DNA of 64,000 nt from Eledone cirrhosa. Taxonomy: Eukaryota. Under the pieces are notes generated by a model. It was not told the origin of the DNA, did not search any database, and saw nothing but the letters and a program-made list of their open reading frames with translations. The stretch spans positions 40,362,001 to 40,426,000 of the forward strand of contig OZ024747.1 of the NCBI GenBank assembly GCA_964016885.1, read 5' to 3'. Below, one piece after another: positions 9,037 to 63,134 of this stretch (its first letter is position 1; each line of letters begins with the position of its first letter). The translations under genes were made by a program, and so were the position numbers.

Positions 9037-9361
9037 GTATTAAGGGTACTATTTATGGTTATGTATGCAATAAAACCTTTGATGGTAATATATTATATAT
9101 ACACAAACCCTAAATAGTGAGAGATAGTCATTAATTACTATCCTATTACCAGTAAGATAAATAGCTCAATGTAATAACATCAGTTGTTTTCACTCTTATT
9201 TTCACTCTTGTTTTTATTTTATTTTATTTTTATCCTGTAACCTTTATATGTAAATTGCCATGCTATATCATTTGATGAATGTCACCCCACTGTTGATCAA
9301 TATGCGCATATGTTTTATGTGTCTCTTGGGTTGAAAAGGAGGTCAAGTATGTTATAAATAG

Positions 9362-9410
9362 TTGCTCCGAAGAATCCAAACCTCGGTTTGGAGGAAACAA
9401 TTGTAAGCAA
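9362..9410 (+). ncRNA. Minimal type I hammerhead ribozyme (CCGAAGA core variant)
   Basis: ttgct-CCGAAGA-a-tccaaacc/ggtttgga-g-GAAA-caattg-TA-agcaa; preceded by TATAAATA and followed by AATAAA, as in Penelope pseudo-LTRs. Confidence 0.7.
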
Positions 9411-9470
9411 ATAAATGACTTAAACTGAACTTTGATTACTGTAATCTCTCTCTCTCTATATATATATATA

Positions 9471-10233
9471 TTTGTTGAGTGAGTTGGAATTTGGCCGGAG
9501 TATCGCTAAAAAGCTTTCTCCGATATTCTATTTATTTACTTACTCTTGGCGCAGCAGATTTGAAAAAATTCCCGGTATAAGGTCAGCATTTCTTTGTTTA
9601 TTTTTTATATATGAATATTGATTGTTCCTTATATCTCATTCTGTTATTTTGCCCGAGAAAATATCTGTGTGTGTCATCAAATGTTGTACACACATAGATA
9701 TTTTTTCAATTTCCAATTGAGTTCTTAGCACGTGGCCTGAATTCCTTTCAGAGTTCATTGTCACGCACATGTATTGTTTTTTGGCAGTAATTCACTTCCT
9801 CATTTTTTGAATCAGTTCGAGCACTTCTTTCAGAACTGCTGGACTGGCGACCTGACAGATACCTCAGGCACAGAAAGTGATTATCGCTAAATGCTGATGT
9901 TGGTTAGATTATCAATATTAGTATTATTGGGGCACCCACTGATGAATTATAGGAGCCCACTTGAATATATATCTATTGATGGTATACAAGCTCCTACATA
10001 AACTGGTATAATTTCACCCAAATTGTAGGAGTGCTATAATGAAACGAGACGTCCGTCTGGGAAGAGATATATTAGATATGTCTCATTTGAAATAATACAG
10101 CCAATTTTCCATGCAATACTTTTAGTTAGCACCCCGAACACTTAATTGGGAATATAATCACTTATTTCCTAATGTTTGTTGAATGTGAGTTGGAATTTGG
10201 CCGGAGTATCGCTAAAAAACTTTCTCCGATATT
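9471..10233 (+). mobile_element. ~704-bp non-coding retrozyme-like unit with ~57-bp terminal redundancy
   Basis: tttgttga..gtgagttggaatttggccggagtatcgctaaaaa.ctttctccgatatt at 9471 and 10175; TA tracts on both sides; internal hammerhead. Confidence 0.7.
9935..10061 (+). ncRNA. Type I hammerhead ribozyme with long stem II, GUC cleavage site
   Basis: ccca-CTGATGA-attatag...ctataat-GAAA-cg agacgtc cg-TC-tggg; predicted cleavage after 10057. Confidence 0.78.
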
Positions 10234-10255
10234 GTATATATTTATATATATATAT

Positions 10256-13110
10256 ATCAATAAGACAATAGAGGTAGTTCGAGTTAGTAATCGAATAATT
10301 AAGCTTAGATTAGTTGTAGGTAGGAGACTACTGACAATCATCTCGGTCTATGCTCCCCAAGCAGGCCTAGGCAAAGATGAGAAAGACTGCTTTTATGAGC
10401 AACTTTTGCAAACAACCACAATGACAGAGGACGGAGACATCGTTATGCTAGCAGGAGACTTCAATGGTCATGTTGGACAGCTCCAGGATGATTACACTGG
10501 GGTACATGGTGGGCACGGTTACGGTTCAAGAAATGAAGAAGGAGTGAGACTTCTTGAATTTTGTGATGCAAGTACATTGACTATTTGCAACACAAACTTC
10601 CAGAAACCTGCCAATCACCTAATAACCTACAAATCTGGTGAGCACATAAGCCAGATTGACTTCCTGCTAGTTAGGCAGCGGGACAGGCAGATAGTGTCTA
10701 ATACCAAGGCATACCCTGGGGAAGAATGTACCCCACAGCATAGGTTAGTTGTTAGTGATATCTCAGTAAGCAAGAGATGGAATGAGACATATAGGAAGGT
10801 GTGGAGAAGAAAGGTCTGGAAGCTAAAAGACCTTTCACTAAAATACAAATTTAGGAAAGCCCTTCAAGATGTATATGACGAAAAAGAAGACGATTTAGAG
10901 ACGTATGACATAGATAATAACTGGAAGTTCTTACGTGACAACTTGCTGAAGGCTACTGATGAAACCTGTGGCTGGAGCAGAGCTCCAACCAGACAGAGAG
11001 TGACCTGGTGGTGGAACAGCAGTGTAGATAAGGCTATTAGAGACAAAAGACTAGCATGGAAGGCTTGGAATAAGGGTGGGAGTAGGGAAGAATATACAGC
11101 CACTAAGAGAGAAGCTAGACGTCAGGTGTACTTAGCACGCAGGGAGGCAGAGAGTAGGAGGTTTGCCAATGTTCTGCGACGGGAAGATCAGAGGCGTGCG
11201 GTGTTCCACATTGCAAGGCAGTGTGTCAATGCAAATCAGGATGTTGTTGGTGATAAATGTGTCCGGGATGATGCCGGTGTACTTAGTGTCACGAATGACC
11301 AGAAAAAGGAGGCCTGGAAATGTCATTATGAGAGACTGATGAATGTGGAGAACGAATGGGAGAGAGAGAAATTACCCTTGGTAGATCCGACAGAGGGACC
11401 AGCTATTGAGATTGACGAATATAGGGTCCAAGAGGCGATTAGGGAAATGAAAAATGGTAAGGCGGCCGGACCATCGGGAATAGTTGCTGAGATGCTGAAG
11501 GCATCAGGGGACGTAGGCACTAAACTGGTTGCACGCATAATCAATCAGGCTATATATGGTGGTGTCATACCCAAAGACTGGTGCAGCAGTATTCTCATAA
11601 ATTGCTACAAAGGTAAAGGGGATGCTTTGGAGAGGAGCAATTATAGGGGTATAAAACTGATAGATCAGGTTATGAAAGTGGCAGAAAGGATTCTAGCACA
11701 ACTAATTAGAGAAAGGGTCAAACTAGATGAGATGCAGTTTGGTTTTGTGCCTGGGAAGAGTACAACAGATGCCCTCTTCTTGGTGAGACAAATGCAAGAG
11801 AGGTTCTTAGAGAAGAATAAGCCACTATACTTAGCCTTTGTTGACCTAGAGAAGGCCTTTGATAGGGTACCCCGATCTGTCATCTGGTGGTCCCTAAGGA
11901 AGCTGGGTGTTGAGGAATGGCTTGTAAGGACAGTGCAAACTTTGTACAGAGGTACTCTCAGTAAAGTCAGGGTAGGAATGGAGTTTAGTGAGGAATTACA
12001 GATACAAGTAGGAGTACATCAGGGTTCGGTCCTCAGCCCGCTCTTGTTCATTATAGTCCTCCAAGCCATAACAGAGGAGTTTAAGACTGGCTGTCCATGG
12101 GAACTTCTCTATGCTGACGATCTGGCTCTTATGGCAGAATCAGTAGAGGAGCTAGAGAATAAATTCCGGCTATGGAAACAGCAGTTGGAAGCAAGAGGAC
12201 TGAGAGTAAATCTAGCTAAGACAAAAGTGTTGATGAGTAGAAAAGAGGACAAAACCCTGATTCCGTCAGGGAAATGGCCATGTTCGATATGCAGAAAAGG
12301 AACTGGCATAAATTCTATAAAATGCACACAATGTAGGTCCTGGGTACACAAGAGATGTAGCGGGATAGCAGGCAAACTAACAGGTAGGGAGAAATATGTA
12401 TGCAGTAGATGTACAGGGAAATTAGACAGTAGAAGTCGCACTGATAGACACATTTTTCAAATGCGAGAGGGCGCTATAGAAGTGGTGGATAGCTTCCGGT
12501 ACCTAGGAGATCAGATTAGCATGGGAGGAGGGTGTTCCGAGGCCATAGTATCTAGAATAAGGACGGGTTGGAAGAAGTTTAGGGAGCTGCTTCCTCTGTT
12601 GACGAAGAAGGGTTTCTCCCTGCGTACGAAAGGCCGGTTGTATGATGCCTGTGTGAGGAGCGCGATGCTGCATGGTAGTGAGACATGGGCAGCTACCGCA
12701 GAAGATATGCGACGGCTGGAGAGAAATGAGGCAAGCATGCTCCGTTGGATGTGCAGTGTAAATGTGCGTGAACGACCCAGCATAAATGTGTTGAGAGAGA
12801 AACTGTGTCTGAGAGGGATAGAATGTAGTGTACGGGAGAGGAGACTGAGGTGGTATGGACATGTGATGCGCATGGAGGATGACCGATGGGTGAAGAAGTG
12901 CCAGGAAATGCCAGTTGAAGGAAGACGTGGTAGAGGTAGACCACGAAAAACATGGGCGGAGGTGGTGAGAACAGACCTCAGATCATTGAAGCTCACGGTG
13001 GAGATGACGAGGGACCGTGACGAGTGGAGAGATGCTGTGCTGAATAAGACCCGTCCCACCCTTGCAAGCAGGGAAAAGCGGACGTAAAATGATGATGATG
13101 ATGATGATGA

Positions 13111-14531: not shown

Positions 14532-15925
14532 ATAACAGGGGAGTTTAAGACTGGCTGCCCATGGGAACTCCTATACGCAGATGATATAACTCTCATAGCT
14601 GAATCTATGGCTGGACTAGAGAACAAATTCCAAACATGGAAGCATGGCCTAGAATCAAAAGGCCTTAAAGTTAACTTGTCTAAGACTAAAGTTCTAGTTT
14701 GTAGAAAGGAAAATAGGGCACAGGTGCCCTCTGGGAAATGGCCATGCTCAGTGTGTAGGAAAGGAGTAGGTAGAAATTCCATTTTATGTCGCAAATGCAA
14801 ACTATGGGTACATAAAAGATGTAGTGGGATCACGTAAATTTTATATGTGGCCAATCCTCAGGTGCAATAAGTAGCAAGTGCCCACAGGATATTAGCTCCT
14901 TCTATTGCCCAGATGGTTCTATAGAAATAGTGGACACTTTCCGTTACCTGGGTGACAAAATCAGAAGTGGTGGAGGGTGTTCTGAAAGCACAGTAGCCAG
15001 AGTCAGAATGGGATGGAAAAAGTTCAGAGAGCTTATACCGCTGTTGGCCACAAAAGGTTTCTCTCTAAAAATGAAAGGCAGATTGTATGATGCCTGTATA
15101 CGAACAGCAATGCTACAGGGCAGTGAGACATGGGCGTTGTGTGCAGAGGACCTGCGCAGACTGGAAAGAAACGAAGCATGCATGCTCCGTTGGATGTGTA
15201 ATAGTAATATATGTGAATGGCAAAGTATAAATGAACTAAGTGAGAAATTAGGAATAAGTGGGATCAGATGTTGTTTACTTGAGAGAAGATTACGTTGGTA
15301 TGGTCATGTGATGCACATGAAAGACGACAGCTGTATAAAAAAGTGCAGGGTGATCAAAATTGATGGAAGTTACGGAGTAGGTAGACCCAGAAAAATCTGG
15401 GACGATTTGATAAATTCTGACCTTACACACATGCACATCTCTAAGACAATATCACTGGACCAAGATCTTTGGCGTTACGCAGTAATACAGAAGACCCGCC
15501 TTGCCTATGTACAAAGCGAACCTACAGTCAGTAGGCACCTCTTAACCAAATATACACCCCAATCCACTACCCCTACTCTATCCTCCCAATCCCACCAACC
15601 TCTCTCTGTAAAGTTGCTACCACAACATTCAGTCCAAATAAATGAGATAATGAGATCAAGATTGAGATCGTGTAGGTGTCACGACAAAAAAACACACAGT
15701 CCACGCTGTAATGTGGCTGTGTAGGTAACACGGAAAAAAGTTCCCAGTCCACACTGTAAATGTGGCTGGTGTTAGGAAGGGCATCCAGCAATAGAAAACA
15801 TGCCAGATAGTCCTATATGAGCAAGACACGGTCATCCGACCAACCTTGCCTCTGTGGGACAACTCCCGTCTAACCCATGCTAGCGTGGAAGATGGACATT
15901 AAACGATGATGATGATGATGATGAT
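14532..15925 (+). mobile_element. RTE LINE family B, 5'-truncated
   Basis: YADD, PHD, YLG and RWYGHV fragments with frameshifts; ~400-bp 3'UTR; (GAT)n tail; starts in (TA)n. Confidence 0.92.
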
Positions 15926-17540: not shown

Positions 17541-17860
17541 GGGGGCACATGGCTTAGTGGTTAGAGCATTGGCCTTGCAATCGAAAGGTTGTGAGTTCAA
17601 TTCTCAGACCGGGTGATGTGTTGTTTCCTTGAGCAAGACACTTTATTTCACATTGCTCCAGTTTACTCAGCTGTAGAAATGAGATGATAGGGACTGGGGT
17701 CGAGGAGGTGCCACGGCAAAAAAGCACCCAGCACTCACTGTAAATGAGGTTGGTGTTAGGAAGGGCATCCAGCTGTAGAAATCAAGCCAGAATCAGTTCC
17801 CGTCCCACCCTTGCAAGCAGGGAAAAGTGGACGTAAAATGAAATGAAATGAATGAAATGA
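17541..17860 (+). mobile_element. SINE family 1 (tRNA head, CORE-like domain, RTE-A tail)
   Basis: A box TGGCTTAGTGG, B box GAGTTCAATTC, TTCCTTGAGCAAGACACTT; 3' end cccgtcccacccttgcaagcagggaaaag as in LINE A. Other copies at 26385-26715(-) and 62765-63105(+). Confidence 0.9.
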
Positions 17861-30409: not shown

Positions 30410-30830
30410 TTATCATACACCTACGGTAGTAGGTGTATAATATTCTTAAGGTCCTATTTCGGTCACTCGCGACACCTTCAAAGCTTTGTCACTAATTCAA
30501 TTTTTGATAGAATTGGATGCGGTTTTTTGCACTTTATAGGACCACAGATAAGCTACTTTTTGACATAAAAATATTGAAATTTGGTTCAGTAGAAAAAAAG
30601 TTACATAAAAATAAGTGAGGACCAAAAGAGTGTAAGGAACTACATACATAAGTAACGCTTAGTTTGTTTCTAATTTCTAATACATTAAAATAGTGATAGA
30701 TTGTGCAATAGTGAATTGTGGTCCGGTAGCTCAGTCGGTAGAGCAGCGGACCGGCAATCCGAAGGTTGTGGGTTCGATTCCCACCCTGATTACTTTTCCT
30801 ATCTGCACTTCTTCCTATTCATTATTATTA
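30410..30830 (+). mobile_element. DINE-1/Helentron-associated-like element
   Basis: Terminal hairpin tacacctac-ggta-gtaggtgta followed by taat, resembling HINE/DINE-1 ends; carries a tRNA-like sequence. Confidence 0.4.
30720..30792 (+). pseudogene. tRNA-like sequence (anticodon GGC), probable pseudo-tRNA
   Basis: D stem GCTC/GAGC, T arm GTGGG-TTCGATT-CCCAC, anticodon stem CGGA/TCCG, imperfect acceptor stem, C at position 33, TTTT terminator directly after. Confidence 0.7.
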
Positions 30831-32344: not shown

Positions 32345-32763
32345 GTGAAGGTGCATGGCTTAGTGGTTAGAGCATTGGGCTTACAATCGAAAGGTTGTGA
32401 GTTCAATTCTCAGACCGGGTGATGTGTTGTTTCCTTGAGCAAGACACTTTATTTCACATTGATGAGATGATTGGACTGGGGTCCCTATCTTTCCACTACA
32501 AAAGTGGTCATGGAGGTGCCACAGCAAAAAAGCACCCAGCCCACACTGTAAAGTGGACGTATAGGCACCACGGAAAAAAAGCACCCAGCACTCACTGTAA
32601 ATGAGGTTGGTGTTAGGAAGGGCATCCAGCTGTAGAAATCAAGCCAGAATCAGTTCCCGTATGAGCAAGACAAGGTCAGCTGACCGGACACTGCCCACAA
32701 CAGGACAACCCAGCTAACCCATGCTAGCGTGGAAGAACGGACGTAAAATAATGATGATGATGA
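32345..32763 (+). mobile_element. SINE family 1 variant with RTE-B'-type tail
   Basis: Same head as 17541, but 3' end ...gctaacccatgctagcgtggaagaacggacgtaaaat(gat)n. Confidence 0.88.
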
Positions 32764-43869: not shown

Positions 43870-43873
<4 letters not shown>

Positions 43874-45477
43874 CTCTCAACGCCTGCCACCCCAACGCCG
43901 TAGCCTTTTTCTCAAGATACGTGGACGATATCCTCATCCTCACTTCTTCCCAAGACACGGCGAACAGAATCTATGAGACGTTCAACAACACGGACGAGAA
44001 CATTGACTTCAGTGTTGAACACCCCAACGAAGACGGGTCACTTGCCCTCCCCGACTTCCGAATCAACATCACGGAACAAGGAGGGATCCACTGCAACTTC
44101 TACAGAAAGGCAGCCTGCAGGGACCTATTCGTTCACTACAAGTCCGCCCTCCCTAACAGTGCCAAAAGAGGATACATCACGAACGAGATCGCGCGAATCA
44201 AAGACAGATGCAGCGATCCCGCGAGTAGTGTCACTCATACCAAGCGATTCCTCGAGGTGCTGGAGACGAACGGGTACCCTACCTTGATCACAGACAGAAT
44301 AGGAGACACCAGACGCAAGAGACAGAGAAGCACCCAAGGCAAGTGCTTCCTTAAAATACCACACCTGGGCGAGAAAACCACCAACGCTATCCGCAAGGCT
44401 ATACGGAGGGAGGGCCTCGACATCCACCTGGCCCACTCGGGCCCCTCCCTGCGAAGATGCCTCTCCAGGAAAACCGAAAAGTCTACTGACGCATGCTCCC
44501 TCAGAGACTGCCCGATACGCCATACTAACTGTTGCCTACGCACATACGTCGTGTATAAGATAGAATGTGACAGGTGCAACCAATACTACATAGGTAGCAC
44601 AATTCGACCTTTGCACATCAGGATCAAGGAACACATTAAAACCAGGGCCTCGTCTTTCCGGAAACACATAGACAAATGCGGAAACAAAGACGGAAGGCTC
44701 ATTGTCACAATTTTAGCGACTGAAAGAAACGTCGGCACGTTACGTATTAAGGAAGGGCTTCTTATCAAACGCCTACAACTGCAATTAAACAACCGCCTAG
44801 AGAGAAGCGAAATGAAATGGCTGGTTTAAGTTAACAAGCGATGCAACAACACACGCACACACACACACGCAAACGAGACAACTACACACACACACGCACA
44901 CACACACACAATAGCATTCCACCATACGAACATACCACACTGCCAATACAGATGAACAAGACAACTACACACGCACACACACACTCAAGCGAGACAACAA
45001 CACACGCACACACACACACACACACAGTAACATTTAACAAGCAGGCAGAGAATGGACTGACAGCTAGCGCCATCCCACTCCCTCATTCGGCCGTTGACTT
45101 CTGTGCGGCCGGCCCCATTTCGCGGGCCCAACCGAATACCTCAGATATTCAAACCACAAACAGCGTAAGACGCGTTCCGAATTGTCCGACAGACAACCTT
45201 TTCCCCCACCCCGGAAAAAAAAACCCCAGTTGATGGATGTGAATCCGAAATATATAGGGACTATTAAATCTCTCCCAAGGTAACTCTCTCTCTCTCTTGT
45301 GTTGTTATTATTATTTTTACCCTTTCACTATTCCCTTCATTCTACACATCCCACACATCTTATACACACCACGCATCTCAACGTCCACCCACTTACATAT
45401 CTCTCTCTCTCCTACACCGGACCCTGTTACCCGGAGATTTACCCATTTGCATTGTCGAGGCTTCCAAACGACTTATA
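43870..45477 (+). mobile_element. Penelope-like element, 5'-truncated (RT C-terminus, GIY-YIG endonuclease, pseudo-LTR)
   Basis: RYVDDIL, YRK, VVYKIECDRCNQYYIGST.R.L..RIKEH, final E and N motifs; open to stop at 44829; (TA)n on both sides. Confidence 0.93.
45224..45259 (+). ncRNA. Degenerate minimal hammerhead in Penelope pseudo-LTR
   Basis: ccc-CAGTTGA-t-ggat gtga atcc-GAAA-tata-TA-ggg; core differs from CUGAUGA at two positions. Confidence 0.55.
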
Positions 45478-45549
45478 AATATATATATATATATATATAG
45501 AATTCCCTTTTTCGGATTATATTACTGTGAGAGCCCTGGTTTCTGTTGA

Positions 45550-45631
45550 GCTCTGCTGATGAATGAAATTCCAACCGTGACCATCTCCACTGAAAGTTTT
45601 CATGAAATAGTCTTTTAAGACTATACAGAGC
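45550..45631 (+). ncRNA. Type I hammerhead ribozyme, copy 1
   Basis: gctctg-CTGATGA-atgaaa...tttcat-GAAA-tagtct ttta agacta-TA-cagagc; three stems and full core; AUA site, cleavage after 45625. Confidence 0.9.
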
Positions 45632-46178
45632 ATTTGATGTTATTCCAAATTGAAGGATAAGTGTTTCAAACTTTATTTTATCATGAGTTAAAGGTCTATA
45701 GATTTTTCCCTGGATTTTACTAAATTCTGTGGATGAATGTATATCCTGATTCTCTTTTGAGATGAGTTTGAGTTATTTTTCCTAAATCTTCCGTTAACTA
45801 CTTTTCCCATCTTGACGGTATAGTCGCATATATGTTATAGAATGCCGTTAGCTTCTTGCTAAAACAATCTCTATACCTCTCATTTATATTTATACTCGGA
45901 TTCTTTTCCTAGAGTGCTTAAACTATCTGTGACTAATCCCGGTTTTTTTCATAAAAACTGTGATAATTATTGCTATTTTGCTGAACTCCTTTGTAGAGTT
46001 TTTTTCAGAATGTATTTGACTGCTATTTCTTGTAAATAAACATTCACTTCCATCCTGACGTCACTAGCCCCGTTTTTTCCTCATGTGCTTTTTCATAAAT
46101 ACACATGAAGACGAACTAGCCAGTTTTAGAATTCCCTTTTTCGGATTATATTACTGTGAGAGCCCTGGTTTCTGTTGA

Positions 46179-46260
46179 GCTCTGCTGATGAATGAAATTC
46201 CAACCGTGACCATCTCCACTGAAAGTTTTCATGAAATAGTCTTTTAAGACTATACAGAGC
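46179..46260 (+). ncRNA. Type I hammerhead ribozyme, copy 2
   Basis: Identical to 45550-45631; cleavage after 46254. Confidence 0.9.
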
Positions 46261-46497
46261 ATTTGATGTTATTCCAAATTGAAGGATAAGTGTTTATCAT
46301 GAGTTAAAGGTCTATAGATTTTTCCCTGGATTTTACTAAATTCTGTGGATGAATGTATATCCTGATTCTCTTTTGAGATGAGTTTGAGTTATTTTTCCTA
46401 AATCTTTCGTTAACTACTTTTCCCATCTTGACGTTATAGTCGCATATATGTTATAGAATGCCGTTAGCTTCTTGCTAAAACAATCTCTATACCTCTC

Positions 46498-46564
<67 letters not shown>

Positions 46565-62628: not shown

Positions 62629-63134
62629 TAGGTATATGATTAACCTGGATGCAGTAATGGTTAATTACTACACTGGATAGAGTTGACATACGGTGAGAAG
62701 TTACTCAAGCACACAGAATTGTAAGCACACAGAATAAATTACCTTTATATATATATATATATATGGCACATGGCTTAGTGGTTAGAGCATTGGCCTTGCA
62801 ATCGAAAGGTTGTGAGTTCAATTCTCAGGCTGGGTGATGTGTTGTTTCCTTGAGCAAGACACTTTATTTCACATTGCTCCAGTTTACTCAGCTGTAGAAA
62901 TGAGATGATAGGGACTGGGGTCCATATCATTCCACTGTAAAGTGGTCGTGGAGGTGCCACGGCAAAAAAGCACCCAGTACTCACTGTAAATGAGGTTGGT
63001 GTTAGGAAGCATCCAGCTGTAGAAATCAAGCCAGTATCAGTTACCGTCCCACCCTTGCAAGCAGGGAAAAAGCGGACGTAAAATGAAATGATGATGATGA
63101 TGAAATGATATATATATATATATATATATATATA

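Follow-up and report, generated by a model that had tools for sequence, protein, structure and literature searches.

The stretch of DNA analysed here (the window; 64,000 nucleotides of Eledone cirrhosa contig OZ024747.1) carries at 9471-10237, on the plus strand, a non-coding insertion of 767 nt that repeat comparison and an ORF check resolve into one 704-nt unit plus about 62 nt, equal to 1.09 units, with a GC content of 0.36. The repeat to which it belongs is here called family A. Its terminal segment is present twice, as a 5' copy (9471-9531, +) that may mark the point where a second round of reverse transcription stopped, and as a 3' copy (10175-10237, +) that runs to the point where the family has its fixed 3' terminus, 180 nt past the predicted cut site of a hammerhead. 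A private 2-nt insertion in the 3' copy gives the window copy a period of 706 in place of the 704 seen family-wide. Unstranded (TA)n runs flank the insertion on the left (9458-9470) and on the right (10238-10257), the right one being either target or sequence added at insertion. The original prediction of a TA-flanked unit of about 704 nt, with a direct repeat at 9471 and 10175 and no ORF, is borne out by these coordinates, by the TA runs and by a longest ATG ORF of 51 aa in the unit read as a circle. The direct repeat is real and extends to approximately 9531 and 10237, but the end of the element had been placed at 10233 and lies at about 10237.

The family A unit is non-coding with a GC content below 50%, as retrozymes are, and it lacks the RT and GIY-YIG endonuclease ORF of an autonomous Penelope-like element (PLE). 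An Rfam search of the window at E<=1 returned no hammerhead, neither in the family A copy nor in the 629-nt unit further downstream, in agreement with the suggestion that the long stem II could escape standard hammerhead searches. BLAST against the 629-nt unit (45500-46500) gave no similarity to the family A unit, which, together with about a thousand insertions in the genome, upholds the view that the family is independent.

Several other features share the window. Upstream, a separate TA-flanked repeat (approximately 9040-9445) holds a hammerhead-like motif (9355-9416, +) with a CCGAAGA core, a short helix II and a ACAAUUGU helix III; the C at core position 4 of this motif recurs in a copy beside locus L189. 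A 5'-truncated PLE of a very abundant family (43873-45480, +; RT end and GIY-YIG), in which no canonical hammerhead was found, has its (TA)n end immediately upstream of the 629-nt unit (45500-46505, +). The latter has two hammerheads with a 41-nt helix II, a GUA-like UA site and a palindromic helix III, ends 246 nt past its cut and has related copies at L199, L204 and L143. A long open RTE-type LINE frame (10262-13087, +), encoding an endonuclease, an RT and a PHD finger, has its 5' end cut by the TA run, and tRNA-like matches at 30720-30792, 32356-32413, 62769-62832 and 17550-17607 are probably the heads of tRNA-derived SINEs.

Roughly a thousand family A insertions are present in the genome, as the exact 3'-end 20-mer had 1000 matches and its control 0. 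A first-look search of the 3.0 Gb genome returned 2724 candidates, with full-length copies 95-98% identical and spread over many contigs. Contigs of runs X1 and X4, which are not on record as RNA, also contain the family, and a metagenome scan with the hammerhead pattern gave 0 matches.

The ends of all 84 insertions represented by the first 100 listed 20-mer matches were mapped, and 82 share a common 3' end at unit positions 53-64 (approximately 10237 in the window), 180 nt past the cut. Since this sample was chosen by its 3' motif, copies chosen by a mid-unit query were checked too, and 29 of 30 stop at the same end. The 5' ends vary across the whole unit; the free circular permutation that had been proposed is thus not supported, the variation being confined to one end. 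Insertions range from 32 to 2502 nt with a median of 460 nt, below one unit, and 18 of the 84 reach at least one unit and 2 reach two units. "One monomer plus a short overlap", as the element had been described, is therefore true of the window copy and is one point in this range. TA-rich sequence lies on the right of 78 and on the left of 54 of the 84 insertions, and the (TA)n flanks would mask any target-site duplication, which in metazoan retrozymes exceeds 4 bp when present.

A fixed 3' end combined with a free 5' end fits neither free permutation nor an LTR element or MITE. The terminal direct repeat of the window copy and the existence of some tandem arrays would have suited an ordinary LTR element, MITE or satellite, but this explanation is refuted by 5' ends that vary over the whole unit where both ends should be fixed, by the dispersal of copies over many contigs and by a median length under one unit. 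LINEs, too, show 5' truncation and a fixed 3' end, and the RTE LINE at 10262 directly adjoins the family A copy, so that a SINE-like parasite copied from the 3' end of the abundant RTE LINEs was considered. We disfavour this explanation and regard it as very improbable, as family A has no similarity to the RTE LINE or to any other sequence in the window, its fixed end lies inside a repeating unit which copies wrap past, and the position of the hammerhead and the (TA)n ends match those of PLEs. The fixed 3' end downstream of the hammerhead, the 5' truncation, the partial tandems and the (TA)n flanks together make up the insertion footprint of PLEs and suggest an internal start of reverse transcription.

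The hammerhead lies at 9935-10061 (+), with its elements, the GUC and the branched helix II where they had been predicted. It is of type I, its three helices being arranged around the core with helix I open. Helix I has 4 bp, CCCA/UGGG (9935-9938 with 10058-10061), and is followed by the CUGAUGA core (9939-9945), helix II (9946-9952 with 10034-10040), GAAA (10041-10044), helix III (10044-10056) and the GUC (10055-10057), the cut being predicted after C10057 (10057|10058). Conservation of the core, on which the proposal depended, is high, with 80 of 89 complete cores intact (C3 U4 G5 A6 G8 A9, G12 A13 A14, A15.1-U16.1, H17). Helix III (10044-10056, +) is near-palindromic with an unpaired A, as originally described, and this A is found in 93 of 96 units and so represents the family state and not a mutation. 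The predicted pairing energy of helix III is -14.7 kcal/mol between two molecules vs 0.0 alone. With its short helix I, 7-9 bp helix II stem and palindromic helix III, family A has the shape of the dimeric hammerheads of PLEs. The monomer hammerhead fold of the window copy lies 2.5 kcal/mol above the minimum-energy fold.

Between the core and GAAA, the window copy has a 95-nt insert (9946-10040, +) which is predicted to fold into a three-way junction, its 7-9 bp stem being followed by the unpaired stretch GCCCA and by hairpins at 9960-9990 and 9992-10030. At the base of helix II, family A has A-U where the G10.1-C11.1 pair is usual. The claim that A-U occupies this position in both the 704-nt and the 629-nt unit is correct, but it does not extend to the sister families described below, which have U.U (B and E) or G-C or G.U (D). 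A GGGC (9930-9933, +) upstream of helix I is predicted to form a pseudoknot with the GCCC (9955-9958) of the helix II junction. Both motifs are invariant, with no covariation in 15 aligned rows and none among the first 100 of 2596 listed matches, so that the pseudoknot stands as a prediction only. Helix II of the satRPV hammerhead is extended and contains a pseudoknot. This RNA reportedly requires a double hammerhead (Song and Miller). An intron within helix II was rejected as an explanation of the insert, as there is no common donor GT near its start (best 6 of 15 rows).

A relative 68-73% identical to family A, found adjoining locus L004, led to family B (737 nt, 3818 candidates), and a shared pattern (2056 matches) led to families D (approximately 712 nt) and E (approximately 998 nt); the four are referred to here as the clan. 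The 3' ends of B, D and E lie at the same point as that of A, 186-188 nt past the predicted cut (A, 180 nt). The core-to-GAAA insert measures 95 nt in A, B and D and 96-97 nt in E, and helix II of all four families is predicted to have the same layout, with the unpaired GCCCA between a 7-9 bp stem and two hairpins, both of which RNAalifold recovers unaided. The sequence of helix III differs by family yet is always self-complementary: B and E have ACAAUUGU, D has ACGAUCGU, and A has the near-palindrome described above. In family B, the size of the loop implies that the third pair of helix III would form only between two molecules. Self-complementary helices III in four related families fit a model of dimeric cleavage.

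The covariation check that had been called for on the stems came out in favour of the structure: across the four families (15 rows), both sides changed in 10 of 38 pairs, which lie in helices I and III, in the stem of helix II and in each of its two hairpins, vs 1-3 pairs in slid controls, with few independent events and a structure drawn from the same sequences as those tested. Families A and B alone account for both-sided changes in 7 of the 38 pairs. The helices around the core contribute 1 pair in helix I, 3 in the helix II stem and 1 in helix III, again from few independent events in four families.

These data also bear on whether the ribozyme is a passive relic, in which case the element would move via its 3' domain while tolerating a long, non-functional helix II. 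In families B and E, helix II begins with U.U and the triplet is a weak GUU, mutations are only slightly rarer in core sites than elsewhere in the unit (9/1109 vs 793/57139 cells), and the long helices II of other families have unrelated shapes, rods or branches, all of which would suit a relic. On the other hand, all 12 core positions are kept in four families that are only about 70-80% alike, the 95-97 nt length and both hairpins are kept with both-sided changes, and 5' ends cluster at the cut. We consider a relic unlikely and the hammerhead likely to be an active ribozyme. In the favoured reading, the branched helix II is under selection for its shape, most likely with a role in protein binding or in the tuning of cleavage.

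The 180 nt downstream of the cut form a second covarying folded domain (10094-10238, +), with an AAUACA/UGUAUU closing helix that stops exactly at the fixed 3' end and a terminal hairpin (10202-10228) just before it. The 3' domain is the putative site where the enzyme binds and reverse transcription starts.

The 5' ends carry information about the template. Among 79 simple insertions (5 of the 84 were left out, 2 with other 3' ends and 3 with internal rearrangements), 16 of 81 passes stop within the 27 nt around the cut, vs 4.8% per 27 nt elsewhere (p 1.5e-6), and one insertion (L279) begins exactly at the first base past the cut. In a separate set of second-round passes, 7 of 26 stop in the cut region (p 0.012; 3 of 60 insertions left out). 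Most of the 5' ends in the cut region coincide with a target-like ATATAT 8-13 nt past the cut; the excess is confounded by this motif and bears on self-cleavage only indirectly. The pile-up is significant against pooled TA-rich controls (p 0.001) and not significant against the best single TA-rich control site (13/80 vs 5/62, p 0.11). A pause of the enzyme at the folded ribozyme could give an identical pile-up and would look the same.

The remaining 65 of the 81 passes continue through the cut, and a circle or an uncut multimer is therefore needed as their template. Units inside one insertion agree in subfamily type and in private changes, and their divergence is 2.8%, vs 3.4% between insertions (38 of 51 pairs). 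This likeness fits a single template, be it a circle or a tandem parent. The longest array (L010/L156; C1:426.146-426.150 Mb) has about 4.7 units with a hammerhead in each of the tandem units, four motifs being recognized by script scan and five by the model. Only 3 of 702 positions distinguish its units 1 and 2, while 6 rare changes are common to units 0 and 3, a pattern that needs more than one circle read round. The array suggests a dimeric template or a later local duplication.

A circular template for family A, as originally proposed, is plausible, but read-through copies of this kind also arise from a tandem transcript that was not cleaved. The same enzyme and ends could operate with no circle if uncut or partly cut linear tandem transcripts served as templates and arrays arose via template jumping or local DNA duplication. 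The read-through passes, the only slightly lower divergence within insertions than between them and the unit pattern of the L010 array are all in line with this alternative, as is the acceptance of unprocessed RNA in vitro by the Poseidon element PAc of Anolis (PMC11167929). Against it, coral, mussel and axolotl retrozymes form circles (PMC7229834), and the family A unit folds as a circle far better than shuffles do (z -8, 0 of 40 as good), which is no proof of a circle. Furthermore, an internal start and 5' truncation shorten each generation, so that some step must regenerate more-than-unit copies. We give the circle-free alternative somewhat less than even weight, and a circular template for part of the copies slightly more than even weight.

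The identity of the enzyme was sought among the PLEs of the genome, which is rich in PLEs ending in (TA)n. PLE remnants lie near 13 of 219 clan loci, and the one examined in full (L304) is a separate element. Its ORF adjoins a family E copy and bears the Hydra-clade marks RWK, DKT and CxCX5C. The 3' region of this type contains a hammerhead-like motif with a U3-A8 core, a 75-nt helix II, a U.U base and a near-palindromic helix III, and among 20 loci of the family, 7 end 54 nt and 9 end 186-187 nt past the predicted cut, with 4 lacking the motif. A second Hydra-like family has a canonical core, a 90-nt rod-like helix II and a helix III identical to that of B and E. An intact Hydra-like ORF is present at L328. 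Hydra elements use two ends (approximately +54 and +160-190), whereas family A uses the long one. A second short 3' end in family A, 40-80 nt past the cut, is represented by 5 matches vs 1000 matches of the long end, and Hydra-like use of it was rejected as these lie at 3 places only.

The PLE loci sampled (the window PLE family, six GIY-YIG clusters and Hydra-like families), which are part of a genome complement containing many more PLE families, have no detectable sequence link to the clan. In a shuffle test of the Hydra 3' region against the clan, 80, 82 and 187 of 200 shuffles were as good. The likeness of Hydra-clade PLEs to the clan is thus one of architecture and not of sequence. Neptune-like PLEs end in (TA)n 115-144 nt past hammerhead-like motifs, which counts against naming the Hydra clade as helper. 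The Neptune-like motifs vary, being canonical at L194, with a U3-A8 core at L189 (7540-7590, -) and with U3-A8 and GCAA replacing GAAA at L193. On these comparisons, a Hydra-clade PLE is the best candidate for the helper of family A, with the arguments for and against this assignment about evenly balanced.

A pattern with a 70-100-nt helix II and such a helix III occurs at 14,979 places genome-wide vs 274 in the control, a count that includes false starts and excludes family A. In 20 fetched loci, helix I had at least 3 bp in 15 of 22 motifs, and the end of a Hydra-like ORF lay at most 1.8 kb upstream of 8 of 22. These loci (L334-L353) represent at least 7 more hammerhead-like families with a long helix II (75-100 nt), most of which end approximately 53-64 or 160-200 nt past the predicted cut, and several of their motifs are in inverted pairs.

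Metazoan non-LTR retrozymes are a known class with a type I hammerhead in each unit and circles in coral, mussel and axolotl (Cervera and de la Pena 2020, PMC7229834); Li, Clavereau and Pollet (2026, 10.64898/2026.07.22.740005) describe units of 51-972 bp and argue that these elements are non-autonomous PLEs. Family A resembles metazoan retrozymes in being non-coding and low in GC, in having one type I hammerhead per unit and both dispersed and tandem copies, in its length of 704 nt, which falls within the range of Li et al., and in being a proposed non-autonomous PLE; the U.U of B and E is known from axolotl HHR_Amex2. In contrast to the short hairpin of metazoan retrozymes, family A has a 95-nt branched helix II; most of its copies are under one unit, and one fixed 3' end is mapped. 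Of 9 retrozyme dimers from Xenopus, a single one showed cleavage in vitro (10.64898/2026.07.22.740005), which counts against the cleavage model for family A.

The minimal dimeric hammerheads of PLEs, for which a circle model was put forward, have a helix I of 4-5 bp, a helix II stem of 7-8 bp and a palindromic helix III (Cervera and de la Pena 2014, PMC4209133). Family A is similar in its 4-bp helix I, its 7-9 bp helix II stem, its palindromic helix III and the lack of the usual loop 1-loop 2 contact, and differs in a loop II of two hairpins (approximately 77 nt), in an A-U in place of the conserved G-C base and in having no RT ORF. On AT-rich DNA, PAc begins reverse transcription at internal sites of its RNA that lie past the hammerhead (Frangieh et al. 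2024, PMC11167929), and the start that we infer for family A is likewise internal, past the hammerhead and on AT-rich DNA. PAc has two start sites 85-92 nt past the cut and family A one end at 180 nt. No PAc reads stopped at the cut, in contrast to the excess of family A 5' ends there.

According to Craig et al. 2021 (PMC8557442), Hydra-clade PLEs target (TA)n and carry hammerheads close to their 3' ends, as does family A. Several Hydra-like families of this genome combine a 75-100-nt helix II with a ACAAUUGU or ACGAUCGU helix III, as in B, D and E. Unlike the clan, Hydra-clade PLEs encode an enzyme, use two ends and have a mostly rod-like helix II, and they have no detectable sequence link to it. 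In a search of a collection of open-access papers, a branched helix II this large was not found for any natural eukaryotic hammerhead; the "long helix II" of PMC13725137 is 6-8 bp. Both the class and the general mechanism have been published. What family A adds is its conserved arm with a three-way junction, a mapped start domain and the accumulation of 5' ends at the cut.

The copy number, ends, (TA)n flanks, lengths, partial tandems and covarying structure of family A point to a non-autonomous retrozyme that is very probably driven by a PLE. The fuller description, a young non-coding non-LTR retrozyme with a predicted hammerhead, inserted by the RT/endonuclease of a PLE that probably belongs to the Hydra clade, is one we hold as quite likely. 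Tandem family A copies would be transcribed, and two hammerheads would pair via the self-complementary helix III and cut after C10057. The product would be linear RNA of 704 nt, some of which may become circular by ligation. The PLE protein would then bind the folded domain spanning the 180 nt past the cut, nick (TA)n DNA and start reverse transcription at the base of the domain. On cut linear RNA, the enzyme would run off after approximately 180 nt, whereas on a circle or uncut multimer it would continue and stop at random, giving 5'-truncated units and partial tandems including the 1.09-mer of the window.

More tentatively, the branched helix II could be the working domain of a new hammerhead architecture, either docking on the 5' flank of helix I through GGGC/GCCC or binding a Hydra-type PLE protein, with cutting confined to the dimer or to the enzyme-bound RNA. 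The genome would then record both fates of the RNA, cut linear molecules as 180-nt copies and circles as more-than-unit copies, and the clan would be part of some 15,000 long-armed hammerheads missed by standard searches. We regard this combined proposal as speculative and rather doubtful.

On the copying of retrozymes and the role of hammerheads in PLEs, the sole biochemical study found cleavage to be dispensable and no RNA ends at the cut. Family A offers a mapped start site at the foot of a covarying 3' domain, a possible genomic trace of some templates having begun at the cut and a named candidate helper, which makes the circle-plus-PLE model testable with one RNA and one protein. With 14,979 places vs 274 in the control for the 70-100-nt helix II pattern, counts of hammerheads in animal genomes may miss large classes.
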